A DNA stretch of 64,000 bases, taken from an uncultured Acidobacteriota bacterium. Lineage in GTDB: Bacteria; Acidobacteriota; Thermoanaerobaculia; Thermoanaerobaculales; Sulfomarinibacteraceae. Numbering within the stretch: the stretch's first letter is position 1; every line of letters begins with the position of its first letter. The DNA is taken from positions 190,391 through 254,390 of the forward strand of contig CAWJPW010000003.1 in NCBI GenBank assembly GCA_963844845.1. The letters run 5' to 3'. Below the pieces are notes generated by a model. That model was given only the letters and a program-made list of their open reading frames with translations, was not told the origin of the DNA and ran no database searches. The translations under genes and the position numbers were made by a program. Shown one piece after another: positions 5,302 through 64,000 of the stretch.

Positions 5302-5891
5302 GGATCACCGGCGGAGCGTGGCGTTCGCGCCTGCTGCGCGGCCCGCGCCGTGGCATGCCGCTGCGCCCCACCCCCGACGCCCTGCGCGAGCGCGCTTTCG
5401 CTGTGCTGGGTGATCGCGTGGTGGGCGCCTTTGTCCTGGACCTCTTCGCGGGCACCGGCGCCGTAGGGCTCGAGGCCCTCTCCCGCGGCGCCGCCCACGC
5501 CGTTTTTGTGGAACGGCATCGCGGCGCGGCCGCCTTGGTCGACGCCAACCGCGCGAGCCTGGGGGCCGCCCAGCAGAGCGTGGTGCTCGTGATGCCAGCC
5601 AGCCGCGCCGTGCGTGAGCTGGCGCGGCGCGGTGAGTGCTTCGATCTCGCCTGGGCCGACCCGCCGTTCGAGCGCTGGCAGGAGGGGCTGGAGGCCCTCG
5701 CTCTCGCGTTCGAGCTCGGCGTCCTCGCGTCGGACGCCGTCGCCTGCCTCGAGTGCCCCGCCCGCGTCGCCGTCGAGCACCGGGGCCTGGAGGTGGTCCG
5801 CGACCTCGCCGGCGGCGCCTCGCGGCTGGTGCTGCTGAAGCCCCTCCCAGCGCCCCGGAACACGGAGGAAGGGAGCCGGGAGACGCCCTGA
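5298..5891 (+). CDS. rsmD: 16S rRNA (guanine966-N2)-methyltransferase RsmD
   Basis: SAM-binding motif LDLFAGTGAVGLEALSRGA and the catalytic DPPF motif (WADPPFE); size ~197 aa. Confidence 0.85.
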   Translation: MRITGGAWRSRLLRGPRRGMPLRPTPDALRERAFAVLGDRVVGAFVLDLFAGTGAVGLEALSRGAAHAVFVERHRGAAALVDANRASLGAAQQSVVLVMPASRAVRELARRGECFDLAWADPPFERWQEGLEALALAFELGVLASDAVACLECPARVAVEHRGLEVVRDLAGGASRLVLLKPLPAPRNTEEGSRETP

Positions 5892-5930
5892 TCCCGCGGG
5901 CAAGGGCGCCGCGGCAACCCCGGACGCGGA

Positions 5931-6228
5931 CGCGGTCCCGGACCCCGTGCCGGCTCCTGATGCTCCCGGCACCGGCTCCCGGGCGTCGGCCTTGCCGACG
6001 CCCGTCGGCGCGTTCGCGAAGGGGGCGACGGCAGAAGCTGCCTGGCGGTAACATAGCCCCCTTCGCGCCCGCGCCGAGTCGCCTCCCTGGTCGTTTGGGG
6101 CCACTGCTCCGGGCGCAAAGGGCCGTGGGAGCCCCCCCGGACACTTTTCCCCGGAGCGCGCTGCAAACGAGGAGGTTGTTGGGGAAAAGTGTTCGGGACG
6201 GCACTCCCGCCGGAGGGCACCTGCTCCG
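5931..6228 (+). repeat. Solo copy (B0) of the ~285-bp hairpin-rich 'B' repeat module also present twice at 20589-21400
   Basis: Direct alignment by eye. gtgccggctcctgatgctccc..cgcgttcgcgaagggggcgacg..cccccttcgcgcc..ccggacac..aacgaggagg..aaaagtgt.cggg..ccgccggagggcac.tgctccg matches 20589-20872 and 21117-21400. Confidence 0.85.
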
Positions 6229-6334
6229 CACGGAACTCTGCACCACCGTCGCGCTCGCGTGCGGGACCGTTCTCGCTCCTGTCGTCTTCTCCCATTCGTA
6301 GGCACTCCTCACACCACCCCCGTATACTTGTCGG

Positions 6335-7438
6335 ATGCTGCGCTTCGATCTTTCCCAGCTGCTTCTCGGGATGGCCTCGGTGTCCTCCCGGATCGAGGAC
6401 CTGGTGTTCACCGTCGGCCGGCCTCCCCTGGTGCGCATCGACGGCGAGATCCGCCCGGTAAAGATGGGCTCGTTGGATCGGTTGGCGCCGTTCCATACCG
6501 AGATGGTGGTGCTGCACCTCCTGAGCGCGGCCCCCCAGGCTGCCGCCCGACTGCGCGAGCGCGGCGCTGCCAGCTTCATCTACCCGATCCCCGGGAAATC
6601 ACGCTTCCGTGCCTCTATCTTCAGCCAGCGCGGCAGCTTCGGGGCGGTACTGCGGGCCATCGCCGACGGTGTTCCAACCCTTGCCGACCTGGGGCTCGTG
6701 AAAGAGTTCGAGGACGTGCTCGAGGAGCGGGCCGGCATCATCCTGGTGAACGGTCCCGCCGGCTCGGGGCGGTCCACAACCATGGCGGCGGTACTCAACG
6801 AGCTCAACCAGACTCGTGCCTGCCACATCGTCACGGTGGAAGACCCCATCGAGTTCCTCCACCGTCACGCCCGTGCCGTGGTGCATCAGCGTGAGGTCGG
6901 GCAGGACACTCCCAGCGCGGCCGCCGGGCTCGAGGATGCGCTCTACCAGGGAGCCCAGGTCATCGTGCTGTCCGAGGTGACCGACCGGGATGCCGCGGCC
7001 CTCGCTCTGGAGGCGGCGGAGGCCGGCCATCTCGTGGTGACCTCGGTGCGGGGGCTCGACACGGGCACCGCGCTGGAGCGGTTCGTCGGGTTCTTCGAAG
7101 GCGAGGAGCAGGAGCGCGCCTGCCGGCACCTCACCTTCTCGCTCAAGCTGTGTGTCACCCAGCGACTCGTACCCAAGATTGGTGGCGGCCGGGTGCTCGC
7201 CGCCGAGATCTGGCGCAGCCTGCCCACGACCCGCGAGCTTCTCCAGAACGGACAGCTCGCCTCCCAGGTGATCGCTGACCTGTTGCGCGACGCCAGCGCC
7301 TTTGGATGCTGCCCCCTCGACCTGTCGCTGGAGCGGCTGGTGCGTGAGGGAGGGGTGGAGGCTGGGGCGGCGCTGGCCGAAGCCGTGGCGCCGCGTCAGC
7401 TGGAGCTGCGCCTCATGGGTCTCGAGGGGATGAGCTGA
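6335..7438 (+). CDS. PilT/PilU-family (type IV pilus retraction-type) hexameric ATPase homolog with degenerate catalytic motifs
   Basis: Collinear with PilT. It has the Asp box IVTVEDPIEF. Walker A is GPAGSGRST (Arg where the P-loop Lys is expected; codon 6770-6772). Walker B region is VIVLSEVTD. His-box region is AGHLVVTSVRG instead of GHLVxxTLHT. The GGGRVLAAEIW tail is present. Confidence 0.8.
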   Translation: MLRFDLSQLLLGMASVSSRIEDLVFTVGRPPLVRIDGEIRPVKMGSLDRLAPFHTEMVVLHLLSAAPQAAARLRERGAASFIYPIPGKSRFRASIFSQRGSFGAVLRAIADGVPTLADLGLVKEFEDVLEERAGIILVNGPAGSGRSTTMAAVLNELNQTRACHIVTVEDPIEFLHRHARAVVHQREVGQDTPSAAAGLEDALYQGAQVIVLSEVTDRDAAALALEAAEAGHLVVTSVRGLDTGTALERFVGFFEGEEQERACRHLTFSLKLCVTQRLVPKIGGGRVLAAEIWRSLPTTRELLQNGQLASQVIADLLRDASAFGCCPLDLSLERLVREGGVEAGAALAEAVAPRQLELRLMGLEGMS

Positions 7439-19264: not shown

Positions 19265-20344
19265 ATGCGCAGAACGATCATCCTCGTTGCGATCGTGGCC
19301 ATCGTGGTCGCCGTCGCCGGCACCGCCCTGGCCGGTGAGCCGGACACCGCGGCGCAGCTGAAGCAGCTGCAGCAGGCCAACGAGAGCCTCAACCACCGCC
19401 TCGACCAGCTCGCCAAGGGGATCGACGACGTGCTCTGGTTCGACCGGGTGGGCGACGTGGCGGTGGTGGACAAGATCCGCATCTACGGCCCGCCCCGCGC
19501 CAACGTACCGAACCCCGACGCCATCGGCGCCACCAACCACCTCAAGTTCTACGCCTACGTGTTTACCCCGCGCGAGGACTTCGGCGGCGCCAAGCTGCCG
19601 CTCCTGCTGCTGCCCCACGGCGGGGTGCACGGCGACTTCACCACCTACTACGCCCACATCGTGCGCGAGCTCGTGGCCCAGGGCTACGTGGTGGTGGCGC
19701 CAGAGTACCGCGGCTCCACCGGCTACGGCGAGGGGATGTACAAGGATATCGACTACGGCGGCCGCGAGGTCGGCGACGTGCTGGCCGCGCGCGACTGGGC
19801 GGTAGCCAACCACCCGCGGGTGGATCCCGAGCGGGTCGGGCTCATCGGCTGGAGCCACGGCGGCCTCATCACCCTCATGAGCCTCATGGACCATCCCGAC
19901 AAGTACGTGTGCGGCTTCGCCGGCGTGCCGGTGTCCGACCTCGTGATGCGCATGGGCTACTGGGGCCCCGACTACCAGAAGTACTACGACGCGCCCTACC
20001 ACATCGGCCAGACGCCGGCGGAGAACCTCGAGGCCTACAAGGGGCGTTCGCCGGTGTGGAACGTGGACAAGCTGAAGAGGCCGGTGCGCATCCACACCAA
20101 CGTGCACGACGAGGACGTCAACTACATCGAGGTCCAGCACCTGATCCAGGCGCTCAAGGCGGCGGGCAAGAAGTTCGAGTACGAGGTCTCGGACGTGCCC
20201 GGCGGGCACAGCTTCGACCGCCTCGACACCGCCGAGGCGTGGGGCTACCGCAAGAAGGCGTACGCGTTCCTGGCGCGCTACCTCAAGCCGCCGCGGCCGG
20301 ACATCGAGCTCGGCGTGAGCGAAGAGGGCGTGGCGGCGCCGTAG
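19265..20344 (+). CDS. S9-family (prolyl oligopeptidase / dipeptidyl-peptidase type) alpha/beta-hydrolase peptidase
   Basis: Start ATG 19265 after GGAGGGAAGAG. N-terminal TM/signal segment. Nucleophile elbow GWSHGG. PEYRGSTGYG; C-terminal D..H (VHDEDVN.., GGHSF). Confidence 0.85.
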   Translation: MRRTIILVAIVAIVVAVAGTALAGEPDTAAQLKQLQQANESLNHRLDQLAKGIDDVLWFDRVGDVAVVDKIRIYGPPRANVPNPDAIGATNHLKFYAYVFTPREDFGGAKLPLLLLPHGGVHGDFTTYYAHIVRELVAQGYVVVAPEYRGSTGYGEGMYKDIDYGGREVGDVLAARDWAVANHPRVDPERVGLIGWSHGGLITLMSLMDHPDKYVCGFAGVPVSDLVMRMGYWGPDYQKYYDAPYHIGQTPAENLEAYKGRSPVWNVDKLKRPVRIHTNVHDEDVNYIEVQHLIQALKAAGKKFEYEVSDVPGGHSFDRLDTAEAWGYRKKAYAFLARYLKPPRPDIELGVSEEGVAAP

Positions 20345-20346
20345 GT

Positions 20347-21600
20347 GCGGCCTCGACCCCGGCAGACGCAGATCCGGCAGAGGGAGGGGACGTGGAGGCG
20401 CGAGGCCTCTTCGCGCCCCCATTGTCTCTCCAGAGCACGTGGGAACCCCTGCCGGACGGCGTAGGTACCCGAACGAAGCTGCGCCAGCGAACGCGCTCGT
20501 GGCGCGCGTAGGACGCGCGCCTACAAGGCCATGGGATTGCATCACCTGCCGCTGCGCCCGGCCCGTGACGCTCCAGGTCCCGGCCAGCGTGCCGGCTGCT
20601 GATGCTCCCAACCCCGGCTCCCGGGCGGCGGCGTTGCCGCCGCCCGTCGGCGCGTTCGCGAAGGGGGCGACGACGGAGGCTGCCTGACGGCAACGCGGCC
20701 CCCTTCGCGCCCTGCGCCGAGTCGCCTGCCCGGTTGTTCGGGGCCACTACTCCGGGCGCCAAGGGCCGTGGGAGCCCCCCCGGACACTGTTTCCGCGATC
20801 GCGCTACGAACGAGGAGGTCGTTCGGGAAAAGTGTCCGGGACGGCACGCCCGCCGGAGGGCACGTGCTCCGGGGCGGCCGCGGCCTCGGCAGACGCAGAT
20901 CCGGCAGAGGGAGGGGACGTGGAGGCGCGAGGCCTCTTCGCGCCCCCACTGCAGCTTCAGAGCAGGTGGGAAACCCCGCCGGACGGCGAAGGTGCCCGAA
21001 CGAAGCTGCGCCAGCGAACGCGCTCGTGGCGCGCGAAGGTCGCGCGCCTACAACGCCATGGGATTGCATCACACGCTGCTACGCCCGGGCCGCGACGGTT
21101 CCCGCGGCCGGCCGGCGTGCCGGCTCCTGATGCTCCCAACCCCGGCTCCCGGGCGGCGGCGTTGCCGCCGCCCGTCGGCGCGTTCGCGAAGGGGGCGTCG
21201 GCGGAGGCTGCCTGACGGCAACGCGGCCCCCTTCGCGCCCTGCGCCGAGTCGCCTGCCTGGTGGTTTGGGGCCAGTACTCTGAATGCCAAGGGCCGTGAG
21301 AGCCCCCCCGGACACTGTTTCCGCGATCGCGCTACAAACGAGGAGGCTGTTCAGGAAAAGTGTCCGGGACGGCACGTCCGCCGGAGGGCATGTGCTCCGG
21401 GGCATCCCCCGCAGACGCACATGCGGTAGGGGGGAGGGGGCGTGTAGGCGCGAAGCCTCTTCGCGCCCCCACCGCCGCTTCAGAGCACGTGGGAACCCCT
21501 GCCGGACGGCCCTAGGTACCCGAACGGATCTCCTCCACCTAACGCGTTCGTGGCGCGCGAAGGTCGCGCGCCTACAAGGAATCCATCGCGCCGAGGTTGT
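20347..21600 (+). repeat. Tandem composite repeat: [A1-B1][A2-B2][A3], period ~527/522 bp, hairpin-rich, apparently non-coding
   Basis: ggcagacgcag(a/c) recurs at 20361, 20888 and ~21410. A modules: 20347-20588, 20878-21116, ~21405-21600. B modules: 20589-20872 and 21117-21400. The first 62 nt of A1 and A2 are identical. The block starts 3 nt after the peptidase stop codon. Confidence 0.9.
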
Positions 21601-21603
21601 GAG

Positions 21604-22333
21604 GGCACGCCGCCGTGGCGCAGCCACGGCCGGACGCGCACTGGTCGCCGGCGGATGCGTGCATCCGGCCGGCGGCCGGGGCGTGGCCGGGTGGCCGCGA
21701 AGCGGCCGGCGTGCCCCGGAGGAACCCCGGCCCTTCGGGCCTCCGCTTGCTCAGGATGACAGGTGATGGTTGGAGCGCCGTTCTCCGTCGCCGTAGGCGA
21801 CGGCACCGGGTGGGCGGGTGGGACACGGCGTCGACGAGGGGGACGGCGTCGCCTTCGTCGCGAGGGCCGCGAGGTGGCGTTCCCCGTGGCGGCGCAGCCG
21901 CCGCGGGGGGCGCCGCATCGCGGGCCGCAGCAGAAGGCGCTCGAGCCGTCCCCCGGCGGGACGCAGCTTCGCTGCGTTCCGGCCGCCGTCAGGCGGCAGA
22001 CGCTTCTATGGCGCTTGCCGAGCCCACGAGTCGCGCCGCCGTCGGTTCTCTGGGTGCGATTCGCGACCGAGGCGAGGAGGCATTGGCCTCGTGGCCATGC
22101 CGACGAAGCCGACCGAGCGAAGCGCGGCCAGAGGGCCGGCGCCGGCGCGACCCCTACATTTCAGAGAGAGCGGGCTTCCCCTATCCTCCCGGAGCATGCT
22201 CCCGGGCGTACCGGGCCGCCGGGGCACGCCGCCGTGGCGCAGCCACGGCCGGACGCGAGGGAGGGACCCGGCGCGCGCTGGCGTGCGCTCGGGGCCCGAC
22301 CGAGTGGCCGTAGGCCGCGAAGCGGCCGGTGTG
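21604..22333 (+). repeat. Mosaic repeat block D1 - C1 - D2: D modules at 21604-21713 and 22223-22333 flank the 394-bp C1 module (21802-22195)
   Basis: ggcacgccgccgtggcgcagccacggccggacgcg and ggccgcgaagcggccgg(c/t)gtg each occur twice, 619 bp apart. C1 matches the reverse complement of 63624-64000. Confidence 0.85.
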
Positions 22334-22353
22334 TACCGGTGGCGAGCCTCTTG

Positions 22354-22920
22354 CTACAGAGAATCTCCCGGGCGGTCGACGTCGACCTCGCCGCCCGGGA
22401 GCGGGACGACGACAACGCGGCTCGGGTCGCGGCGGAGGACGGTTCGGGCGCCGGTGTCTCCCTTTACCGCCAGGAGTTCGGCGAAGAGGGCGCGGTCGAG
22501 CACCGCCGGGACGCCGACGACGCCGGCGTACGCCGAGGCGGCGGCGGGCAGGGTGCTCGCCGCGTGCGCGGCGAGGAGGCGGCGGAGGTGGTCCGCGGTG
22601 ACCGCCGGTTGGTCGCACACCATGAGTAGGGCCGCGCCGGCGCCCTCCGGCACCGCGGCGATGCCTGCTCGCAGCGAGGCGCTCATGCCCTCCTCCCAGT
22701 CGCCGGCCGTCACCACCCGCACCGCGAGGTCGTCCACCTCGGCGGCGAGGCGGTCGGCGTCGTGGCCCAGCACCACCAGCACCGGGTCGCAGCCGGCGGC
22801 GATAGCCGCCTCGGCGGCGCGGCGCATGAGGCTCTCGCCGCCCACCCTTTCGAGCTGCTTGGGCCGGCCGAGGCGCCGGGAGGCCCCGGCGGCGAGGACC
22901 ACCGCCGCCGTCGCGCTCAT
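22354..22920 (-). CDS. MobA/MocA-like nucleotidyltransferase (molybdenum cofactor cytidylyl/guanylyl-transferase family)
   Basis: N-terminal AVVLAAGASRRLGRPKQL signature and size 188 aa; 4-nt overlap with the upstream XdhC gene. Confidence 0.8.
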   Translation of the reverse strand: MSATAAVVLAAGASRRLGRPKQLERVGGESLMRRAAEAAIAAGCDPVLVVLGHDADRLAAEVDDLAVRVVTAGDWEEGMSASLRAGIAAVPEGAGAALLMVCDQPAVTADHLRRLLAAHAASTLPAAASAYAGVVGVPAVLDRALFAELLAVKGDTGARTVLRRDPSRVVVVPLPGGEVDVDRPGDSL

Positions 22921-33140: not shown

Positions 33141-33668
33141 TCAGCTGCGCGAGGGGTAGAGCCCCTCCAGGGCAATGATGAAGTTGAGGGTCAGGTAGGG
33201 CTGCAGGTTGTTGTGCGCCTGGCTACCGCCGGTGTTGGGCAGCGAGCGGGCGTCCATGTCGACCAGGTTGGCGGAGGTGCTGCTCTGGTATGGCGCGCCG
33301 CCGCGGGCGCGGGCCAACGTCACCGCAGAGGTCAGCGAGCCCTGCTCGCCGTTCTCGGCGGTCGCCCGCAGCGTGTGGGTATGGTTGGGCATCTGGTCCT
33401 CGCTGAGGGTGACGGTCTCGACGCCGCCGTGCTCTCCCAGGCGGCGGTCGGTGAGGCCCGGTCCGCGCCCGGGATGCATGGGGGCACGGCCTTGGAGGTT
33501 GGGCAGGCCGAAGGTCGTGCGGCCATCGCCGCCGTAGGTGGTCCCGACGAGGGAGAACAGCGCGGTGTTCTGTGAGACGGGGAGCAGCTGGCCGTTGCAG
33601 AAGGCCCAGCTGCGGGGCGCGAAGTTGCCGGCGAAGATGCGGATCTCGGCGACGAAAGGCTCGCTCAT
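33141..33668 (-). CDS. Phage-tail-collar-domain protein (MdpB-like), paralog 3 of 3
   Basis: MSEPFVAEIRIFAGNFAPRSWAFCNGQLLPVSQNTALFSLVGTTYGGDGRTTFGLPNLQGRAP..NNLQPYLTLNFIIALEGLYPSR is the collar-domain signature. Confidence 0.9.
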   Translation of the reverse strand: MSEPFVAEIRIFAGNFAPRSWAFCNGQLLPVSQNTALFSLVGTTYGGDGRTTFGLPNLQGRAPMHPGRGPGLTDRRLGEHGGVETVTLSEDQMPNHTHTLRATAENGEQGSLTSAVTLARARGGAPYQSSTSANLVDMDARSLPNTGGSQAHNNLQPYLTLNFIIALEGLYPSRS

Positions 33669-33676
33669 GGCGTCTC

Positions 33677-34195
33677 CTAGTGCCGCGACGGGTAGATGCC
33701 GACGAGCGCAACGATGAAGTGAACGCAGAGGTACGGCATCAGGTTGGTGTGCGACCGGCTCCCTCCCACCGCGGCGATGGCGGTGGCCGCCATGTTGGTG
33801 TCGGGCGGACCGTTGTAGTACGGCTCCAGCACCGTCGAGCCGGCGAGCACATCGCCGGCGGGGTTGGCGTCGGAGGCGTTGTCGGAGGATCCGGTGAGGG
33901 GGTGGCCGTGGGACGGGAGCTGGTTGACGGTGAGCGTCACCTTCTCGCTGCCCCCCTGGCTGCCCAGCCGGCGCTGGCTCAGCCCCGGGCCCTGCCCGGC
34001 GTGGACCGGTACCCTCCCACGCAGGTCGGGCAGGCCGAAGGTCGTCCGTCCGTCACCGCCGTAAATGGTCCCGAGAAGGGAGAAGAGAGCGTCGTTCTGG
34101 GATACCGCCAGCAGCTGACCGTCGCAGAACGCCCAGCTCCGCGGCGCGAAGTTCCCGGCGAACATGCGGATCTCGCCGACAAACGGCTCGGACAT
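33677..34195 (-). CDS. Phage-tail-collar-domain protein (MdpB-like), paralog 2 of 3
   Basis: Start ATG at 34195 is preceded by GAGGAGG. MSEPFVGEIRMFAGNFAPRSWAFCDGQLLAVSQNDALFSLLGTIYGGDGRTTFGLPDLRGRVP..TNLMPYLCVHFIVALVGIYPSR. Confidence 0.9.
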   Translation of the reverse strand: MSEPFVGEIRMFAGNFAPRSWAFCDGQLLAVSQNDALFSLLGTIYGGDGRTTFGLPDLRGRVPVHAGQGPGLSQRRLGSQGGSEKVTLTVNQLPSHGHPLTGSSDNASDANPAGDVLAGSTVLEPYYNGPPDTNMAATAIAAVGGSRSHTNLMPYLCVHFIVALVGIYPSRH

Positions 34196-34208
34196 CTCGA
34201 CCTCCTCG

Positions 34209-34712
34209 TCAGTTGCGTGAGGGGAACAGCCCCTGCAGGGCGATGCAGAAGTTGACGGCCAGGTACGGCTGCATGTTCTCGTGCGTCTGCCCGCCGCCGA
34301 CATTCGTCACCGAGCCGGCGCCCAGAGCCACCAGCGACGAGGGATACTGGCGGTAGAGGCCGCCGACCTCGCGGGCGAGTACCCGTCCGTCGGGTCGGTT
34401 GGCGTCGCCGTCGTTGCCGGAACCGCGCAGGGTGTGGGAGTGTTGCGGCATCTCGTTCGCCGCCACGGTGTGCGTCTCCTCCCCCGAGCGGCCACCCAGG
34501 GCGAACCCGAACCCGGCGTGGATCGGTACGCGGCCGCGCAGGTCGGGCAGCGCGAAGCTGGTCCGCCCGTCGCCGCCATAGGTGGTGCCGAGCAGGGAGT
34601 AGAGGCTCTGGTTCTGGTTGATGGGCAGGATCTGCCCGTCGCAGAAGGCCCAGCCGCGCGGCGCGAAGTTGAAGCCCACGATTCGGATCTCCGCGAGGAA
34701 TGGCTCTGACAC
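34209..34712 (-). CDS. Phage-tail-collar-domain protein (MdpB-like), paralog 1 of 3
   Basis: MSEPFLAEIRIVGFNFAPRGWAFCDGQILPINQNQSLYSLLGTTYGGDGRTSFALPDLRGRVP..ENMQPYLAVNFCIALQGLFPSR. Confidence 0.9.
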   Translation of the reverse strand: MSEPFLAEIRIVGFNFAPRGWAFCDGQILPINQNQSLYSLLGTTYGGDGRTSFALPDLRGRVPIHAGFGFALGGRSGEETHTVAANEMPQHSHTLRGSGNDGDANRPDGRVLAREVGGLYRQYPSSLVALGAGSVTNVGGGQTHENMQPYLAVNFCIALQGLFPSRN

Positions 34713-34783
34713 CGGTGGTCCCCCCTTCTCGGCCTCCGCTCAGTCTCTCAGCGCAATGGCGGACCGACAGCCCTCTGCGAGCC

Positions 34784-37700
34784 TTACGGCTGCGGGCAGG
34801 CGCCGGCGTTGAAGTTGATCGTTCCCGCCACGCTCACCGCGACCCCGCCGTTGATCGTGTCGAGGCGGTTGGGGTCCGCCGATCCGGCGGGGTCGAGCTG
34901 ACGCACGTTGTGGGTTCCCGCCGTCTGGCGGACCCGGATCGGAGTCGGGCTGTAGATGTTGGTCAGCGTGTTGTTGGCGATGTCCGAGCACAGGGTGGCG
35001 CCGGCGATGATGACCTGACAGTTGATGCCGCGGTCGTCACGGATCTGGTCGAGGGTATTGTTGGTGATGGTGGCGTTGGTGGTGCCGCCTCCCACCGCCT
35101 CGTTGACGTACACGCCCTCGAAGCCGCTGCCAGTCCCGTCGCCGATCTCCCGGATGGTGTTGCCGGTGACGAGCACGGTCGTCGTTCCGGTGCCCTCGTT
35201 GCTGATCCTCACGCCCTCGCCGAGCAGGCACCCCGAGCCCGTCACGCCGCTGCTGCCGATTACGTTGTTCTCGATGTGGCCCGACATCGTGCCAGTGTGA
35301 CTGGCATTGGTGAACACGTTGATCGCGTTCGAGCGGCTGCTCGTGATCACCGGGTTGTCGTGGATGTTGAACGTCATGCTCCCTGCGCCCGACGCCGAGA
35401 CGCCGACACCGACGTTGTTGCTCTGGAAGGTGCTGCTCGTGACCTCCACGCTCATGGTGCCGCCGGCGGTGTCAGCCAAGATGCCGTTGGCGGTGAGAGC
35501 TCCGGGGGTGATGCTGCCGGTGAAGGTGCTGCCCGACACGTTGAGCGTCATGTCGGCGGTGGCTGCGCCGGAGAAGAGCAGGTCGTGCCCGGCGACGGTC
35601 GACGCCCCGCTGTTCTGCAGGGTACTGCCGGCGACGGTCATGGTGAGGGGAGTGGCCAGCGTGTTCGCCACCTTGATGTTGTTCTCGAAGGAGTTGCTCA
35701 CCGTGGTGCCGGTGAGGGTCACCGCGCCCGTGGCCTCCTCCAGCAGAATGCCGGCCTCGTCGGGCGATACCTGGTCGGCGTTGCCGGCGAGCGAGCAGTA
35801 GCTCAGCGTCAGACCAGCCACGTTGCTGCCGTAGACCCCGTTGCGGCTGTTGTTGTTGATGTTCATGCGCGCCAGGGTGACGTTGGCGGCGTTGCTGAGC
35901 ATCACGCCATCCACGTTACCCGTCGTGTTGGCGATGGTGCCGCCGGTGCCGTTGGCGGCGGCGGCGCCATCGCCGGTCACCGAAAACGGCCCCGTCGTGC
36001 CGGTGTTGGTGAGGGTGAGGCCGGGGGTGGTTCCCCCGCTCGACGACAGGCTCTCGAAGGTCACGCCGCTGGCGCCGATGGTGGTGCCGGTGATGCTCAC
36101 CGCGGCCCCGGTGGTGGCGGTGACGGTGTTGCCGGTGCCGGTGACGATCACGGTGCCGCCGCCGGAGGCGGTGAAGCCGGCCGCGGTGGTGGACGTGACG
36201 GCGAGGCCGCCGCCGGTGAAGCTCATGGTGTGGCCGGTGTTGCCGGTGAGGGTGACCCCCGGGTGTCCGGGGGTGCTGATGGTCTTGGTCGAGCCGCTGA
36301 AGGTGGTCGAGCCGCCGCTGTTGCCGTTCACCACGACACCGCTTCCGCTTCCGCCGGTGACAGCGAGCGTCCCGAAGGTCCGCACGCCCGCCGAGTTGTT
36401 CTGCAGCGAGATCCCGTCGGTGCCGCCGGTCACCTGCGTGTTGCCGAACGCCACGGTGCCGGTGGAGGTGTCCACCAGGATCCGCTGTGTGCCGGTGCCC
36501 GTCACCTGAGTGGTGCCCGACTGGGAGAACGTGGCGTTTGCACTCGTCGCGGTGACCGCGATCCCCTGGAGCGTGGGATTGGTCACCGTGGTGCCCCCGC
36601 TCACCGTGAGGCTCCCCGCGACACCGTCGAGGGTGAGACCGGCGCCGGGGCTCGAGGCGCTCGACAGGTTGGAGAAAGCGGTGCCGATGGCGGCGTTGAC
36701 GACGTGCAGCGCCTCACCGCTCGCAGTGGTGATCGCGCCACCCGTGGTCTGGAGGCGGAAGCCGCTCCCGGTCGCGGGGTTGAAGCTGGCGTCGGGGGTG
36801 GAGACCAGCAGGCCCGTGCCCGACTGGTTGCCGATGGTGAGGGTGTCGAGCTGCAGGTCGCCGCGCACGGCCGCGAGGTGGAGCCCGTCGCCCTGGATGT
36901 CGCCCGGTGAGGAGGTGCTTCCCACGGACAGGGCGCCCCCGGCTACCGTATCGAAGGTCGGGGTGGCCGGGTCCGCGTCGAACACGACGTCGTCCAGCAC
37001 CAACCCGCCGCCGCCCCCTGCCGCGCTGGCCGTGAGGGCGGCGAGGTCGGTGACGGCGACCGCGCCGGTGGTGCCGGTCCCGTCCACCACCAGGCCGGCG
37101 CCGCTGCCGCCGGCGAGGGCACAGCTTGTGAGCCCGACGTCCAGGCTCGCGGCGTCGGTGGCGGCGATGGCGACGGCGTGGCGGTCACCGGAGATGGTGA
37201 GGCCGCGCACGGCCATCCCGTTGCGGTCGCCGTTGGCGGTGCTCGCCGTCACGGTGACGCCGTCGCCACCGGCGTTCGTGTTTGCGATCCGCGGCCGGGT
37301 GCCGGCCGTGACGAGGGTGAGCGGCGTGCCGTTCACCGTGGCCACCAGCGGGACGCCCTGGCCGATGAGGTGCTGGCCGTCGAGCAGGGCGACGCCCTGA
37401 TCCTGGCCGACGCTCGTGCCGTCACCGGTGAACACGTAGAGGATCTCACCTGCGGACGAGGACGAGGCCGCCGCCGCCAGGGTGTCGAAGGGCGTCGTCG
37501 AGGTGCCGTCGCCGCCGGCGGCCTCGTCGTTCTTCACGTACCAGATCATCTGCTCGATCACCACGCTGACGGTGCCGGCGACGGTGTTGGTGCCGTCGCT
37601 GAGGGCGTAGGTGAAGGTGTCGGGGTCGGCAATCGTCGCGTCGACTCCGGGCGGCGGCGTGTACACGAAGGACCCGTTCGCCGCAATGTCGACGGTTCCG

Positions 37701-39967
37701 CCCTTGCTGGTCGCCACCCCGCTGGCAGCGACCACCGACAGGGTGTTGAAGGCCGGCACCGTGTCCGGGTCGGAGTCGTTGGCCAGCACGTTGGTCGCCG
37801 CAGTCGCAGCTGCCAGCGCTGTCGGTGTCGCACCGCCCGCCGCCAGCTGGGTGTTGCCGGCGGTGTAGTAGGTGTCGGGCGCCGCGCTCGGCGGCTCGTT
37901 GACGTCCAGGACGGTGATCGTGACGGTGGCCGTGTCGGACAGCGGGGGAGTGCCGTCGTCGGTGATCTGGACGGTAAGAGAGAAGCTGGGGGTGGCCTCG
38001 AAGTTCACGGCCGCGGCGTTGGCCACGGTGATCTGGCCGGAGGTGGCGCCGATGGTGAAGGCGCCGCCGGTGTTGCCTGCGGTGATGGACCAGGCGTAGG
38101 TCTCGCCGGCGTCGGGGTCGGTGAACGCCAGGGTGCCGAGCACGGTGGCGTTGGGGCTGTTCTCGGCGATGGAGAAGCCCTGGTCCGCCAGCACTGGTGG
38201 CTCGTTGGCGTTGGCGAGATTGACGGTGATGGTGGCGCTGCCCGAAAGCGGCGGCGAGCCGTTGTCGGTGACCTGGACGGTGAGGGAGAAGCTGGGGTTG
38301 GTCTCGAAGTCGAGGGCAGAGGCGTTGGCGACGGTGATCTGCCCGGTGGCCGGGCCGATGGTGAAGGCGCCGGCGGTGTTGCCGGCGGTGATGGCGTAGC
38401 TGAGGGCCTGTGTCGGCACGTCCTGGTCGCTGGTGCTGACAGTGCCCACCACCGTCGCGGCCGGGCTGTTCTCGGGCAGGCTGAAGGTCGCCGGCGTGAC
38501 CACCGGCGCGTCGTTGACGTCGTTGAGGTTCACGGTGACGGTGGCAGTGCCCGAAAGCGGCGGCGAGCCGTTGTCGGTGACCTGGACGGTGAGGGAGAAG
38601 CTGGGGGTGGTCTCGAAGTCCACCGCGGCGGCGTTAGCGACGGTGATCTGGCCTGAGGCGGCGCCGATGGTGAAGGCGCCGCCGGTGTTGCCAGCGGTGA
38701 TGGCGTAGGTGAAGCTCTCGCTCGCCTGCTCGGGGTCGCTGAAGCCGATGGGGGCGCCCACCGGGGTCGCGGCGGGGCTGTTCTCGTCGATGGCGAAGGT
38801 AGCCCCAGTCACCGCCGGCGGGTCGTTGACGCCGCTCACCGTGACCGTCACGGTGCCGGTGTCGCTCGCGCCGTTGCCGTCGTCGATGGTGTAGGTGAAG
38901 GTGTCGTCGATACTGTCGCCGGCGCTGAGGGCCTGCAGGGAGGAAGCGCCGGTGGGGTCGTAGGTGAGGTCGCCGTTGGCGGCGACCGTGACGGCCGCGC
39001 CCTCGGCGCTGGTGGCGTCGAAGGCGCTCACGGTAAGCGGGTCGCTGTCGGGGTCGGAGTCGACCCCGGAGCCGTTGTCGGCGAGCACGTTGACGCTGCT
39101 GAGCACGGTGTCCTCGTCGGTGGCGAAGCTGTCGGGCTCGGCCAGCGGAGGAGCGTTGGGGGTGAGGTCGAAACGGAAGACCAGGATGGCGCCGGCCCCC
39201 GCCCGGGCGGCGACACCGTAGGCGGCGAGGATGTCCACCTGGCTCGGTGCGTCACCCGAGGGGTCGGTGGCGAGCGGTGAGATGCCGGCCCAGTCCGAGG
39301 CGTCGCCGTCGGGCGTGGGCAGGAAGGCGGCCCAGGCGGCGCCGATTCCCCCGACCAGCAGCACGACCCCCAACACTGCGGCGACGCGGCTCGAGCGCCG
39401 CCGCAGCACCAGCACGCCGGCGCCGGAGAGTAGCGCCGCCAGGAGTAGGAGGCCCCAGGTGCCGACGGTTGGGATGCCCGCCGCCTGGCCGAGGTCGAGG
39501 ATGATGGCGTTGCCGCCCGGACTCCCGGTGGTGGAGAGCAGGGCGTCGCCGCTTGCGCCCACGAGGAGCGAGGCGAAGCCGAGCCGAAGAGTGCCGGCGG
39601 CCGGTGGCGGCAGCTCGAGGCCGGTCTCGAGCACCGTGGGGGTACTGCTGGCGCCGGGCGCGAGCGGCCACGGGGGTGCGGCGGGCGAGGTCACCGCGAC
39701 CGGAGCGCCGAGGCTTCCGCCGCTGCACTCCTGGACCACCACGGAGGTGACGGTCTTGCTGTCGAGGTCGACGGTGGTGACGAGCACCCGTTCGACGCCG
39801 GTGAACGGTCCGTCGGCCGTGGCGATCGTGCATCCGGTGCCGGCGTTGTCGTCGGCGTCCACCAGCACCCGAAAATCCCCGGTGGCGGCGGCCGCGGGGC
39901 GCGGGACCAGGACCAGAGCGAGGGTGAGGGCGGCGAGAACGGGGAGCACGCGGTGGCGGGGCATCAT
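34784..39967 (-). CDS. Giant (1727 aa) surface adhesin-like protein. Domain order: signal peptide, ~160-aa N-domain, internal IPTL-CTERM-like segment plus a second TM, VCBS/cadherin-like repeats, then a long parallel beta-helix region
   Basis: Signal peptide MMPRHRVLPVLAALTLALVLVPRPAAAA. GIPTVGTWGLLLLAALLSGAGVLVLRRR at residues ~164-191. Three ~104-aa cadherin-type repeats (..ENSPxxTxVGT..YAITAGNTxGAFTIxxxxGQITVANxxxxDFExxPSFSLTVQVTDNGSPPLS..VNDAP). LANDSDPD-type modules. More than 800 aa of G/T/S/N/V-rich beta-helix-like repeats. Confidence 0.85.
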   Translation of the reverse strand: MMPRHRVLPVLAALTLALVLVPRPAAAATGDFRVLVDADDNAGTGCTIATADGPFTGVERVLVTTVDLDSKTVTSVVVQECSGGSLGAPVAVTSPAAPPWPLAPGASSTPTVLETGLELPPPAAGTLRLGFASLLVGASGDALLSTTGSPGGNAIILDLGQAAGIPTVGTWGLLLLAALLSGAGVLVLRRRSSRVAAVLGVVLLVGGIGAAWAAFLPTPDGDASDWAGISPLATDPSGDAPSQVDILAAYGVAARAGAGAILVFRFDLTPNAPPLAEPDSFATDEDTVLSSVNVLADNGSGVDSDPDSDPLTVSAFDATSAEGAAVTVAANGDLTYDPTGASSLQALSAGDSIDDTFTYTIDDGNGASDTGTVTVTVSGVNDPPAVTGATFAIDENSPAATPVGAPIGFSDPEQASESFTYAITAGNTGGAFTIGAASGQITVANAAAVDFETTPSFSLTVQVTDNGSPPLSGTATVTVNLNDVNDAPVVTPATFSLPENSPAATVVGTVSTSDQDVPTQALSYAITAGNTAGAFTIGPATGQITVANASALDFETNPSFSLTVQVTDNGSPPLSGSATITVNLANANEPPVLADQGFSIAENSPNATVLGTLAFTDPDAGETYAWSITAGNTGGAFTIGATSGQITVANAAAVNFEATPSFSLTVQITDDGTPPLSDTATVTITVLDVNEPPSAAPDTYYTAGNTQLAAGGATPTALAAATAATNVLANDSDPDTVPAFNTLSVVAASGVATSKGGTVDIAANGSFVYTPPPGVDATIADPDTFTYALSDGTNTVAGTVSVVIEQMIWYVKNDEAAGGDGTSTTPFDTLAAAASSSSAGEILYVFTGDGTSVGQDQGVALLDGQHLIGQGVPLVATVNGTPLTLVTAGTRPRIANTNAGGDGVTVTASTANGDRNGMAVRGLTISGDRHAVAIAATDAASLDVGLTSCALAGGSGAGLVVDGTGTTGAVAVTDLAALTASAAGGGGGLVLDDVVFDADPATPTFDTVAGGALSVGSTSSPGDIQGDGLHLAAVRGDLQLDTLTIGNQSGTGLLVSTPDASFNPATGSGFRLQTTGGAITTASGEALHVVNAAIGTAFSNLSSASSPGAGLTLDGVAGSLTVSGGTTVTNPTLQGIAVTATSANATFSQSGTTQVTGTGTQRILVDTSTGTVAFGNTQVTGGTDGISLQNNSAGVRTFGTLAVTGGSGSGVVVNGNSGGSTTFSGSTKTISTPGHPGVTLTGNTGHTMSFTGGGLAVTSTTAAGFTASGGGTVIVTGTGNTVTATTGAAVSITGTTIGASGVTFESLSSSGGTTPGLTLTNTGTTGPFSVTGDGAAAANGTGGTIANTTGNVDGVMLSNAANVTLARMNINNNSRNGVYGSNVAGLTLSYCSLAGNADQVSPDEAGILLEEATGAVTLTGTTVSNSFENNIKVANTLATPLTMTVAGSTLQNSGASTVAGHDLLFSGAATADMTLNVSGSTFTGSITPGALTANGILADTAGGTMSVEVTSSTFQSNNVGVGVSASGAGSMTFNIHDNPVITSSRSNAINVFTNASHTGTMSGHIENNVIGSSGVTGSGCLLGEGVRISNEGTGTTTVLVTGNTIREIGDGTGSGFEGVYVNEAVGGGTTNATITNNTLDQIRDDRGINCQVIIAGATLCSDIANNTLTNIYSPTPIRVRQTAGTHNVRQLDPAGSADPNRLDTINGGVAVSVAGTINFNAGACPQP
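37892..38830 (-). repeat. Three tandem ~309-312-nt cadherin-like coding repeats within the adhesin gene
   Basis: A 57-nt stretch gcccgaaagcggcggcgagccgttgtcggtgacctggacggtgagggagaagctgggg is identical at 38240-38296 and 38549-38605 (offset 309). The third unit is more diverged. Confidence 0.85.
39323..39478 (-). other. Internal IPTL-CTERM-like exosortase recognition segment (motif + TM + Arg cluster) followed by a second TM helix, inside the adhesin ORF
   Basis: Translation of 39478->39389 gives GIPTVGTWGLLLLAALLSGAGVLVLRRRSS. Translation of 39385->39323 gives VAAVLGVVLLVGGIGAAWAAF. There is no in-frame stop between them. Confidence 0.7.
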
Positions 39968-57235: not shown

Positions 57236-57949
57236 CTACCGGCCGGTGGGCTCGCCGCTGGGCTTGAGCGAGGACGGCAACGCCGCAGCCCCCTCCAGCA
57301 ACGCCGCATGGATCTCCTGGGCATCCTCGGCCTCCAGCAGGCGCGCGAGCCGGCCGGGGTTGCGTACGATCCAGGCCATGCGCGACAGCCAGCGCAGGTG
57401 GAGTGCGTCGTTGCGGAGCACGAGGAGGAAGAAGAGCTGGGTTTTGCCCATATCGGGCGATCCGAAGACCACCCCCTCGCGCGAGCGTCCCAGGGCGATG
57501 AACTGCTTGGGGAACTTGTCGGGCGAGCGGCGACGCGCGTGCAGGAAGGCGACGCCCTCGGGCACGGCGGTGGGCACCAGGCGCTCGCGCGCGGCGAGGG
57601 CGGCCTCGAGCCACGCGGCATCCTTGACCAGCCCGAGCGACGTGACCTGCTCGACCATCGAATGAATCACCTCGCTGCGGTCGCGTGCAGAGAGGTTCGG
57701 GATGACCTGGTCGGGGGTGAAGATCTCCTCGAGGGGGAGGTCCACGCTCTGGTTCGGAGTGACGCCCGAGGAGGCCACCGACTCGGCGGCGAGGGTGTCG
57801 AGATACTCGTCCAGGAGCGCGCGCCGGAACCGCCACTGGCCTCCGATCTTGACGCCGGGTATCTTGCCCTCGTGGGCGAGACGAACCAGGGTCCTTTCGG
57901 CAAGCTTGAGATACTCTGCGGCCTCTTTGGCGGTCATGTACGCTTCCAT
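57236..57949 (-). CDS. Excisionase/MerR-type HTH fused to a PTS EIIA type-2 (PtsN-like) domain
   Basis: Start ATG at 57949 after GGAGG. The HTH reads MTAKEAAEYLKLAERTLVRLAHEGKIPGVKIGGQWRF. The EIIA-2 fold has the candidate phospho-His context in PEGVAFLHARR. Confidence 0.78.
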   Translation of the reverse strand: MEAYMTAKEAAEYLKLAERTLVRLAHEGKIPGVKIGGQWRFRRALLDEYLDTLAAESVASSGVTPNQSVDLPLEEIFTPDQVIPNLSARDRSEVIHSMVEQVTSLGLVKDAAWLEAALAARERLVPTAVPEGVAFLHARRRSPDKFPKQFIALGRSREGVVFGSPDMGKTQLFFLLVLRNDALHLRWLSRMAWIVRNPGRLARLLEAEDAQEIHAALLEGAAALPSSLKPSGEPTGR

Positions 57950-58109
57950 CCACGAACCTCCGGATTCCAGGCCGAGTGCGGCCTTGAATGGCTGAGTACC
58001 CCTTTTTGACGGTGATGTCAAGGGAAGCTGGGTGGGCTTGCGCCGGGCTTGCGCTGTATGCTATCTACGTGAGCGCTTAGAGAGTGCCGAACTCGAGGAG
58101 GAAAATGCT

Positions 58110-58352
58110 ATGGATGTGGAAGCCAAGGTGAAGGAGATTATTGTCCAGCAGCTCGGCGTGGACGCCGAGAAGGTGACGCTCGACGCGTCGTTCGTCGACG
58201 ACCTCGGCGCCGACTCGCTGGATACGGTGGAGCTGGTGATGGCCTTCGAAGAGGAGTTCGGGGTGGAGATCCCCGACGAGGCGGCGGAGAAGATCGCCAC
58301 CGTGCGCAACGCCGTCGACTACCTCAAGGAGCACGCGGAGGGCGCCAGTTGA
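58110..58352 (+). CDS. acpP: Acyl carrier protein
   Basis: 80 aa from ATG 58110; [20 protein letters not shown] phosphopantetheine attachment motif (DSL). Confidence 0.95.
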
Positions 58353-59587
58353 GCCGACGGGTGGTGGTGACCGGGCTCGGCCTGGTGTCGCCCCTCGGGA
58401 ACGACACCAGGAGCACCTGGGACGGGCTGCTGGCTGGCCGAAGCGGGGTCGGTCCCATCACCCATTTCGACGCCACTGACTGGTCCGCCCGCATCGCCGC
58501 CGAGGTGAAGGGGTTTGACGTCGAGCAGCTGATGCCCGCCAAGGAGGCGCGCAAGTTCGACGTCTTCGTTCACTACGCGGTGGCGGCCTCGGATCAGGCG
58601 GTGGCGTCGTCGGGGCTCGAGATCACCGATGAGAACGCCCACCGGGTGGGGGTCGTCATCGGCTCCGGGATCGGCGGCCTGCCGCTCATTGAAGACACCC
58701 ACTCGGTCCTGATTGAGAAGGGCCCACGCCGGGTCTCGCCCTTCTTCATCCCGGGCGCCATCATCAACATGTCGGCAGGGGTGGTGAGCATTCGCACCGG
58801 CGCCAAGGGTCCCAACATGGCGACCTGCACTGCCTGCTCGACCTCAGCCCACGCCATTGGCGACGCCCTGCTGTACATTCGCCACGGCTACGCCGACGCG
58901 ATTATCGCCGGCGGCGCCGAAGCGGTGATCAGCCCCATGACGCTGGCGGGCTTCGCGTCCATGCGCGCCCTCTCCACCCGCAACGACGAGCCCGAGCGGG
59001 CGTCGCGCCCCTGGGACAAGGACCGGGACGGCTTCGTCATCGGTGAGGGAGCCGGCGTCGTAATGCTGGAGGAGCTCGAGCATGCGCTCCGGCGGGGCGC
59101 GCCGATTCTCGCGGAGGTACTGGGCTTTGGCATGTCGGGCGACGCCCACCACATCTCGGCTCCGGCCGAGGACGGCGATGGCGCGGTTCGCGTGATCCTC
59201 GCCGCCCTCGCCGACGCCGGCCTCAACCCCGGCGAGATCGACTATGTCAATGCCCACGGCACCTCCACGCCGCACGGGGACCGGGTGGAGACCATCGCCC
59301 TCAAGCGGGCGTTCGGCGAGCACGCCCACCGCCTCGCGGTGTCGTCCACCAAGTCGATGACCGGCCACCTGCTGGGTGCGGCCGGCGGCCTGGAGTTCGG
59401 CGTCACGGTGATGGCGGCCAAACATGGGGTGGTGCCGCCCACAATCAACCTGGACGAGCCCGACCCCGAGAACGACCTAGATTATGTGCCGCACACCGCT
59501 CGGGAGATGCCCGTGCGCCGGGCGGTGACCAACTCGTTCGGGTTCGGTGGGACCAACGCGTGCCTGGTGGTGGGCCGGTTCGAGTGA
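58349..59587 (+). CDS. fabF: Beta-ketoacyl-ACP synthase II
   Basis: RRVVVTGLG.., active-site Cys context [23 protein letters not shown] and SFGFGGTN motifs; 4-nt overlap with acpP. Confidence 0.95.
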
Positions 59588-59816
59588 CCAGCGCCCGTCG
59601 GCGGTTGGCGGCATCCGAGAGTAGGAGAGGAGCACGACGCTGACCGCCAGCCCGCACTACTCACCGGGATTCGTGATGAGGGCGGCGAGGTGGCACGCGC
59701 ACCGGCGAGCCCGATCCGAGGCGTGCAGCGACGAGGGTGCACGTGTGCCGAGCACAGCAGCGCGCGAAGGCACCCCCGGGGGCGGCACGGCGCAGGCCGC
59801 AGTAGAAGTCCGGTGA

Positions 59817-61655: not shown

Positions 61656-61758
61656 TCCACTGGTGAATGGCCATTCAGTCTGGTACACTCGGGTTGACTG
61701 AATGACGGTTCAGTCACTTTTTGGCGAGTCTTTCAACTTCCACTCGAGGGGAGGCCCA

Positions 61759-62550
61759 ATGAAGTGCATCGTATGTATGACCCACGTGCCCGACACGGCG
61801 TCGGTCATCAAGGTGGGGCCGGACGGTAAGCACATCGACGAGACCGGCATCAAGTGGATCGTGTCGCCGTACGACGAATACGCCCTGGAGGAAGCTCTCA
61901 AGATCACCGAGGCGCAGGGCGGCGAGGTGACGGTGATCAGCTACGGTCCGGCGCGGGCTGAGCAGGGCCTGCGCGAGTGCCTGGCGCGAGGCGCAGGTGC
62001 GGCCGTCCACGTGGTGGGTGGCGAGGGCACGCTCGGCGACGCCTTTAGCATCGCCAAGGTCCTCGCGGCCGCCATCAAGGGGCGCGAGTTCGACCTTGTG
62101 CTGTGCGGCGTCGAGGGTGTCGGCACCGACAACGCCATGGTGGGACCCATGCTCGCGGAGCTCCTCGATCTGCCGCACGTCTCGGGGATCATCAAGCTCG
62201 AGCTGGGCGACGGCTCGCTCACCGCCGAGCGCGAGATTGAAGGCGGCCACGAGGTCTACACCGCGCCGCTGCCAGCGCTGCTGACGGCGCAAAAGGGCCT
62301 CAACGAGCCGCGCTACTCCTCGCTCAAGGGGATCATGGCGGCCAAGCGCAAGCCGGTGGAGAGCACGACGCCCGGCGACCTCGGCCTCGACGAGGCCCAG
62401 CTCGCGGGTGCCGAGGCGTGCTACCAGGTGCGCAGCCTCGAGCTGCCGCCGCCCAAGGAGGCGGGAACCATCATCAACGGGGAGGACGATCCCAAGGCGG
62501 CGGCTAGCCAGCTGGTCAAGCTCCTCCACGAAGAGGCCAAGGCGGTATAG
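61759..62550 (+). CDS. etfB: Electron transfer flavoprotein beta subunit
   Basis: Start ATG 61759 after GAGGGGAGG. MKCIVCMTHVPDTA..VSPYDEYALEEALKI..DLVLCGVEGVGTDNAMVGPMLAELLDLP. Confidence 0.93.
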   Translation: MKCIVCMTHVPDTASVIKVGPDGKHIDETGIKWIVSPYDEYALEEALKITEAQGGEVTVISYGPARAEQGLRECLARGAGAAVHVVGGEGTLGDAFSIAKVLAAAIKGREFDLVLCGVEGVGTDNAMVGPMLAELLDLPHVSGIIKLELGDGSLTAEREIEGGHEVYTAPLPALLTAQKGLNEPRYSSLKGIMAAKRKPVESTTPGDLGLDEAQLAGAEACYQVRSLELPPPKEAGTIINGEDDPKAAASQLVKLLHEEAKAV

Positions 62551-62559
62551 GAGGGCGGC

Positions 62560-63557: not shown

Positions 63558-63591
63558 GAGCGCCCCGGGCAACCGGGGCGCTCTTCTTTGG
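63558..63591 (+). terminator. Rho-independent terminator after etfA
   Basis: Stem gagcgccccgg / ccggggcgctc with loop gcaa, followed by ttctttgg, 27 nt after the stop codon. Confidence 0.75.
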
Positions 63592-63623
63592 ATTCTGCGG
63601 GTGGTGCACGGCCGCCGGGGCAC

Positions 63624-64000
63624 GCTCCGGGAGGGTAGGGGAAACCGCTCTCTCTGAAATGTATGGGTCGCGCCGGCGCCGGCCCTCTGGCCGCGCTTCG
63701 CTTGGTCGCCTTCGTCGGCATGACCACGAGGTCAGTGCCTCCTCGGCTCGGTCGCGAATCGCACCCAGGGACCTCTGGTGGAGCGACTCGTGCCGTTGCT
63801 GAACGCCATGGGGAGAGGTGCCAGGTTGAAACCTGGCACCGTCCGCCGGGGGACGGCTCGAGCGCCTTCTGCTACGGCCCGCGATGCGGCGCCCCCCGCG
63901 GCGGCTGCGCCACCATGGGGAACGCCACCTCGCGGCCCTCGCGACGAAGGCGACGCCGTCCCCCTCGTCGACGCCATGTCCCACCCACCCACCCGGTGCC
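63624..64000 (-). repeat. C2: inverted copy of repeat module C1 (21802-22195), truncated by the window edge
   Basis: The reverse complement of 64000-63843 matches 21802-21959 with only a handful of substitutions (ggcaccgggtggg.gggtgggaca.ggcgtcgacgagggggacggcgtcgccttcgtcgcgagggccgcgaggtggcg...). The reverse complement of 63768-63624 matches 22050-22195. The centre differs. Confidence 0.88.

Follow-up and report, generated by a model that had tools for sequence, protein, structure and literature searches.

A structured, mosaic intergenic repeat with a variable junction hairpin in an uncultured high-GC, Acidobacteria-like genome

The window, by which we mean the whole stretch of 64,000 nucleotides that was analysed, has a GC content of 70% and is densely packed with housekeeping genes, among them those for thymidylate kinase, the Pol III delta' subunit, an S9 peptidase, a MobA-like protein, XdhC, isocitrate dehydrogenase, NusB, DnaJ, a CLC channel and EtfBA. 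Its EtfA is identical to a protein encoded on an 886-kb contig, and the named relatives of this EtfA are from Acidobacteria or Thermoanaerobaculales MAGs. Four repeated modules, A, B, C and D, are confined to three intergenic regions between Pfam-supported genes (5891-6335, 20344-22354 and 63531 onwards). Module B stands alone at 5907-6228, flanked by an rsmD-like gene and a gene for a T2SSE ATPase. The second region is an unusually long gap of 2 kb between convergent genes and consists wholly of repeats, in the order A + B in tandem (20344-21579), module D, the module C copy termed C1 and a second module D. The A + B unit is non-coding, 527 bp long and present in 2.3 tandem copies with 88% identity. 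In the third region the other copy of module C, C2, abuts the intrinsic terminator of etfA (63558-63583), the last gene of the series HTH_17/PTS_EIIA_2, ACP, KAS, CLC channel, EtfB and EtfA (57236-63531). No tRNA was found in the 64-kb window, nor did its about 55 ORFs yield a gene for a transposase, a reverse transcriptase, an integrase or an HUH protein.

A third copy for which DNA is available lies on the contig of the closest EtfA relative (L003, GCA_975902885.1; EtfA 88% identical), where modules D and C, a fragment of A and module B follow etfA in series, with C oriented as C2. The more distant EtfA relatives at ~80% identity (L007-L010) share the gene order of 57236-63531, with two extra genes after the PTS_EIIA_2 gene in L007, and carry none of the four modules. 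The gap after etfA is short and repeat-free in these relatives, and the repeat arrays have therefore been added recently to a stable backbone.

Module C, roughly 400-480 nt long and non-coding, has at least eight copies in a single uncultured genome of high GC content (Acidobacteria-like) and one copy in a sister genome. The first-pass annotation had described C1 and C2 as two conserved flanks around an unrelated centre, each opening with its own hairpin. An inverted-repeat search recovered both flanks, a left block of 158 nt (21802-21959 against 63843-64000, 97% identical) and a right block of 134 nt (22047-22180 against 63638-63771, 92% identical). In the pairwise alignment the left blocks differ by five transitions and the centre aligns poorly. 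Both hairpins were found as described: GGGACGCAGC-TTC-GCTGCGTTCC in C1 (21958-21980), with 10 bp including one G.T, and GGTGCCAGGT-TTCA-ACCTGGCACC in C2 (reverse complement of 63817-63840), with 10 perfect bp. The centre is indeed very different in the two copies, but it is not unrelated, with CATGGCG and CACGAGTCGC kept in both. With an identity of roughly 55-60% by eye, it looks like a strongly diverged homologue. The idea that the centre is one exchangeable cassette did not survive either, as its 3' third (22030-22049) forms the base of the right long hairpin on the 5' side. What had been called the cassette is the variable hairpin (H2), a further hairpin (H3), a spacer and the base of a stem, not a single unit. 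The left edge at 21802 proved to be an artefact, C2 being cut by the end of the window. L003 and the ORF translations P0121-P0125 of the further copies described below show the conserved unit starting ~80 nt earlier, near 21723. The parts of each copy are listed in Table 1.

Table 1. Parts of the module C copies and positions of the module D copies, in window coordinates unless L003 is named.
Feature	Position	Strand	Remarks
C1	21802-22205	+	shares left and right blocks with C2
C1, 5' extension of the module	21723..21801	+	conserved with L003:2473-2545 and in translations P0121-P0125 (...GPSGLRLLRMTG.GWSAV...)
C1, small hairpin in 5' extension	21729-21741	+	GGCCC-TTC-GGGCC
C1, motif in 5' extension	21749-21760	-	GTCATCCTGAGC
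C1, hairpin in 5' extension	21786-21802	+	CGTCGCC-GTA-GGCGACG
C1, closing stem, G-rich 5' strand	21802..21837	+	GGCACCGGGTGGGCGGGTGGG...; pairs with C-rich 3' tail (C1 and C2 folds)
C1, long hairpin I	21838..21954	+	left conserved block; apex GGCGGC-GCA-GCCGCC; predicted fold
C1, H2, variable 'cassette' hairpin	21957..21981	+	10-11 bp, loop TTC; other sequence in C2 and L003
C1, H3	21982..21997	+	GCCGCC-GTCA-GGCGGC; compensated in L003; absent from C2
C1, spacer / H4 region	21998..22029	+	conserved CATGGCG and CACGAGTCGC, variable middle
C1, long hairpin II	22030..22151	+	right conserved block and last 20 nt of the 'variable' centre; apex GGCC-TCGT-GGCC
C1, 3' tail	22152..22205	+	less GC-rich patch (TACATTTCAGAGAGAGC) and C-rich 3' strand of closing stem
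C2	64000-63615	-	shares left and right blocks with C1
C2, closing stem, 5' strand	63965..64000	-	cut by window end
C2, long hairpin I	63848..63964	-	predicted fold
C2, H2, variable hairpin	63810..63847	-	perfect 10-bp core 63817-63840, loop TTCA
C2, H4b, small hairpin	63791..63808	-	TGGCGTT-CAGC-AACGGCA; C2 is without H3
C2, long hairpin II	63665..63789	-	basal stem weakened by divergent centre
C2, 3' tail and closing strand	63615..63664	-	abuts etfA intrinsic terminator
Module D, copy 1	21603..21722	+	immediately upstream of C1; closed structure, roughly 120 nt
Module D, copy 2	22222..22342	+	immediately downstream of C1; 75% identical to copy 1, other central hairpin
Module D in L003	L003:1946-2067		

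Module C folds into a terminal stem, hairpin I of ~117 nt, one to three short perfect hairpins at the junction and hairpin II of ~122 nt. In all three DNA copies the better-folding strand is the C1(+)-type strand, with folding z-scores of -8.4 for C1, -6.2 for C2 and -5.8 for the L003 copy, against -3.9, -3.3 and -1.7 respectively on the opposite strand. The consensus structure on the three-sequence alignment has 144 pairs with 94.4% of cells paired. The structure is preserved among copies and between two species by compensatory changes: 13 pairs are changed on both sides, compared with 5.7 +/- 1.8 in shuffles (0/500 reaching this value) and with 1-4 in slid controls. Hairpin I of L003, for example, is kept by multi-base replacements such as UCCCC/GGGGG to CGGAG/CUCCG and GCCUUC/GAAGGC to GGCUCC/GGAGCC, while the apex stem of hairpin II shows a compensatory G-C to A-U change in C2 (columns 370/379). 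H3 reads CCCGCC-GCA-GGCGGG in L003 and GCCGCC-GTCA-GGCGGC in C1. The long hairpin of module B is likewise kept through compensatory changes in L003 (2683-3035). A comparison of the hairpin arms made without a folding program gave 23 G.T-type and 14 A.C-type mismatches, a weak strand bias.

Seven C-GNA-G loop cores (GCGAAGC or GCGCAGC) lie within 21600-22350, six of them on the plus strand; the density of these heptamers in the window would predict about 0.9. The two heptamers are the cores of very stable C-GNA-G triloop mini-hairpins. Module D also folds clearly better on one strand and combines a conserved closing stem (GGGCACGCCG/CGGCGTGCCC) and GNA-loop mini-hairpins with a central hairpin that varies between copies. 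As it shares the closing stem and the variable central hairpin with module C, the variable hairpin is a property of a repeat superfamily and not of a special cassette site in C. No additional copies of module D were recovered with a covariance model from the sequence examined. Pairing between the ends of module C is possible (GGCACCGGGTGGG... with ...CCCTCCCGGAGCRTGCC), with no more than about 14 of 21 positions matching by eye, and an alternative pairing of the ends is predicted once the 5' extension is included in the fold. Within that extension, the motif GTCATCCTGAGC, of which the window holds one exact copy, reads GTCACCCTGAGC in L003 (about 2505-2516). It resembles a palindromic repeat that is frequent in the genomes of soil bacteria.

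Further copies were sought by using the spurious ORF at 21615-22310 as a query against 1.8 billion representative proteins. The matches comprised the L003 ORF and six further copies (P0121-P0125 and P0127), which are read as spurious ORF translations, the DNA-level comparison resting on C1, C2 and L003 (n=3). At least six further copies are thereby placed in the window's own assembly, on contigs of 967976, 412277, 534217, 886246 and 329790 bp whose NCBI/ENA sources are those of the window's contig; one of the six is on the window's own contig, and none maps identically to the window. A masked alignment query of the protein set recovered four ORFs, all already known, while a chimeric six-frame 'protein' query gave no match, its low-complexity words having probably swamped the candidates. 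Scans of genome_contigs with TACATTTCAGAGAGAGCGG and of metagenome_contigs with CTCGGTCGCGAATCRCACCC returned chance matches only, to unrelated contigs of 61-64% GC or from gut and rumen, and nothing similar was found in a scan of viral_contigs or by BLAST against plasmids and phages.

With these copies the picture of a conserved scaffold carrying different short hairpins at one fixed position was borne out and extended. H2 has three sequences as DNA, the third being GGCCGCGGC-CTA-GCCGCGGCC on the C1(+)-type strand of L003 (the plus strand of L003 reads -TAG-), and two new variants at the cassette site are seen at the translation level in P0122 and P0127. Among the DNA copies each H2 is private to its copy, and no H2 or H3 hairpin or arm recurs elsewhere in the window or the fetched loci (roughly 160 kb). 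The C1-type H2 occurs in four copies (C1, P0121, P0123 and P0124), with changes limited to the loop. Sub-modules are combined differently among copies: P0121 joins a C1-type H2 to a C2-like H4, the type of right block, alpha or beta, does not follow the type of H2, P0125 lacks the whole centre and P0123 lacks half of hairpin I. This mosaic structure points to recombination among the sub-modules.

The module C copies are not protein-coding. The reading frame is not kept from copy to copy, and the C1 and C2 centres differ in length by 16 nt. None of the ORFs in 20344-22354 shows a gene-like GC1/2/3 pattern, and the spurious ORFs of module C have no Pfam match; on the same three grounds a gene or pseudogene was rejected. 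Nor do known RNA families account for the module, as Rfam 15 (4227 families) gave no match at the gathering threshold over the window, and in 20300-22450 only chance-level scores of at most 22 bits, compared with gathering scores of 43-80, and none even at E < 10. A group II intron or another known RNA was set aside for want of an Rfam match, a retron or DGR because the window has no reverse transcriptase gene, an integron attC site because there is neither an integrase nor any cassette ORF, and a CRISPR array because the spacing is not regular. Neither end of module C has a sigma-70-like promoter or an intrinsic terminator.

We consider it probable that module C is an interspersed repeat, non-coding and specific to this lineage, which forms mosaic intergenic arrays with modules A, B and D, and it is likewise probable that these arrays are limited to a few intergenic regions of the window's genome and of its closest relative. 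On this evidence module C looks like a member of a new lineage-specific family of structured intergenic repeats and not like a new kind of gene. The flanks of C1 and C2 are 92-97% identical, which exceeds both the 73% identity of the positional orthologues C2 and L003 and the 87.5% of the adjacent etfBA coding DNA. This points to a recent duplication within the genome, or to gene conversion there. Such events between copies would keep the long flanks near-identical, would stop at the heterologous centre and would also shuffle its sub-modules. Turnover of the junction hairpins may come from a mechanism that creates or mends perfect inverted repeats, for example template switching during replication, by which a hairpin would be kept while its sequence changes; the same outcome would be expected if selection favoured a hairpin whatever its sequence. 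We infer gene conversion and template switching from the three DNA copies, and neither arm of any H2 could be traced to a neighbouring template. Template switching has been described as a source of perfect stems and of multi-base compensatory change (PMC8794818). The element would need no host function, and any effect might be indirect, through its stable structure in DNA or in read-through transcripts; comparable repeats are structural and parasitic in nature (PMC3049150, PMC3733652).

The folding bias towards one strand in all three copies and in module D does not sit easily with an interspersed repeat of this kind, since a purely double-stranded, functionless repeat does not predict it, and it hints that a single-stranded form, RNA or DNA, may matter. 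The retention of structure across species by compensation could also reflect real purifying selection. Together, the strand asymmetry and the preserved structure keep a role as RNA or single-stranded DNA alive as a minority reading. In one version modules C and D would be multi-copy genes for structured non-coding RNAs, transcribed from the better-folding strand, with H2 as a variable peripheral helix (compare an expansion segment) or as a determinant read by a protein partner. We regard this as unlikely. It is consistent with the very negative strand-specific z-scores, with compensatory pairs in excess of both controls, with the surplus of G.U-type over A.C-type mismatches obtained without a folding program and with the position of six of the seven C-GNA-G cores on the better-folding strand. 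Against it stand the failure to match Rfam even at high E-values, the want of promoter and terminator at the ends, the large deletions in P0123 and P0125 and the confinement of the family to two close genomes, and the structured strand of the C2 and L003 copies runs antisense to the genes on either side. Near-perfect stems of at least 50 bp are, moreover, unusual in stable bacterial RNAs and typical of DNA repeats. The earlier suggestion of a structured RNA with a variable specificity loop is unlikely too. Like the RNA-gene reading it has against it the missing Rfam match, the missing promoter and terminator and the large deletions, and in addition the variable bases sit in perfect stems closed by loops of 3-4 nt and are therefore not free to pair with a target, which speaks against a guide function. 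It is distinctly less probable that C and D are substrates or products of an undescribed single-strand-specific system, either as RNAs with a diversified junction helix or as a DNA element that rewrites its junction hairpin at each copying event; as such an element it could be mobilised or copied by way of a single-stranded intermediate and leave a private perfect palindrome as its signature.

The first-pass annotation also raised the possibility that small palindromic units are inserted at a preferred site. In its explicit form pre-existing REP-like palindromes would be inserted or exchanged at the C site by a RAYT/HUH-like enzyme, or C itself would be a trans-mobilised MITE/REPIN-like element. 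Different perfect hairpins do lie 0-2 nt from the same conserved ...GTCCCCCGGCGG, an intermediate of single-stranded DNA would fit the strand asymmetry, and the spacers of REP dimers are variable and carry small stem-loops (PMC3733652). The idea of reusable units nevertheless finds no support, the hairpins and their arms being absent from the rest of the roughly 160 kb available. Neither GTAG nor CGTC stands as a tag beside the hairpins when their flanks are read from the sequence, the candidate terminal inverted repeat is the weak end pairing described above and comes without a target-site duplication in the copies examined, and no gene for a transposase, an HUH protein or another mobilising enzyme was identified in the 64-kb window. 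In C2 the divergence extends well past H2 with residual homology, which fits divergence or recombination better than a clean insertion, and we hold insertion or mobilisation of this kind to be improbable. The opposite extreme, that the centre merely reflects relaxed constraint, random decay or an assembly artefact, its hairpins being coincidental in sequence of 75-80% GC, is the least credible of the explanations and very unlikely. It is true that GC-rich sequence forms hairpins easily, that the basal stem of hairpin II is degraded in C2 and that the test of hairpin potential in the protein-only copies P0122 and P0127 is without power, random peptides reaching equally long stems under codon degeneracy. 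Against this, all three independent DNA copies carry a perfect or near-perfect stem of 9-10 bp with a loop of 3-4 nt at the same position, H3 is kept in L003 by compensatory change and four copies have stably inherited the C1-type H2, with differences in its loop only. An assembly error is also an unlikely source of the difference between C1 and C2, as several independent copies on separate contigs, and another genome, differ at the same site, for which mis-assembly would be insufficient.

As interspersed repeats, the modules share features with several known systems. Like REP/BIME elements and REPINs they are extragenic, GC-rich and palindromic and form mosaic clusters of several motifs in variable order and orientation (PMC3733652; PMC3116915). 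REP dimers also fold into larger stem-loops, with variable spacers bearing small stem-loops between conserved parts, and REPs too are mostly found downstream of genes, between convergent or co-directional ORFs. A REP unit is, however, only 20-40 nt long and present in hundreds of copies, whereas module C measures roughly 400-480 nt and has about 10 known copies, its short hairpins are not repeated, and its sequence is not similar to that of REPs. The GTAG/CGTC tag found at the end of REP palindromes (PMC3733652) is absent from H2 and H3 of C1, C2 and L003, GTAG occurring only as a loop at 21793-21796 when these flanks are read, and no RAYT (Y1/HUH transposase) gene was found among the about 55 ORFs of the window. 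By unit size, by tag and by the want of a repeated short palindrome, module C falls outside the REP elements. With regard to MITEs, no direct target-site duplication flanks C1, C2 or the L003 copy, and the window contains no IS that could be a parent with matching ends.

The BOX elements of Streptococcus pneumoniae (PMC3049150) are likewise modular and non-coding, with conserved ends, a variable middle and extensive predicted structure; they occur only in a single species and its nearest relative, have been judged parasitic and slow-moving and are sometimes mis-called as ORFs. Module C, with conserved terminal modules, a variable interior and a similarly narrow lineage, resembles them by analogy only, with no homology implied: the two come from unrelated phyla, differ in base composition and show no similarity in sequence. 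Variation among BOX elements lies in how many copies of a single boxB module they contain, whereas the middle of module C is made of private, unrelated hairpins. ERIC/IRU sequences are imperfect palindromic intergenic repeats whose copies differ, as those of module C do, by internal indels at specific sites within conserved flanks. An ERIC sequence is ~127 bp long with one hairpin and few recurrent inserts, and module C differs from it in its private hairpins. These enterobacterial sequences were reportedly treated by Sharp and Leach in 1996 and by Wilson and Sharp in 2006. The multi-helix junction, the compensatory changes and the variable peripheral helix also recall structured multi-copy bacterial RNAs such as the large non-coding RNA families of Rfam, from which module C is set apart by its lack of a match and of transcription signals, by its degenerate copies and by its very long near-perfect stems.

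The modules make up a well-delimited family of structured mosaic repeats in an uncultured lineage of high GC content, and we know of no earlier description of such elements in this lineage. The analysis is descriptive and opens no long-standing question, though it does offer a small natural test case in which perfect hairpins are replaced while the neighbouring sequence is homogenised. Gene calls on the repeats (21615-22313 on the plus strand and P0121-P0128) appear as 'hypothetical proteins' of 190-325 aa that are rich in Arg, Gly and Ala and have no Pfam domain; in this way gene callers turn the repeats into spurious Arg-rich protein families that pollute databases (P0121-P0128).

An M4 (thermolysin-like) peptidase at 72-1934 on the plus strand, its start probably cut by the left end of the window, has four PPC pre-peptidase C-terminal domains, which account for the 345-bp direct repeats at 563-1552. 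On the minus strand, three tandem paralogous genes for phage tail collar domain proteins of about 175-208 aa, spaced about 520 bp apart (33141-34739), adjoin a gene for a cadherin/Big_9-repeat protein of 1727 aa (34784-39967) with internal repeats of ~306 bp.
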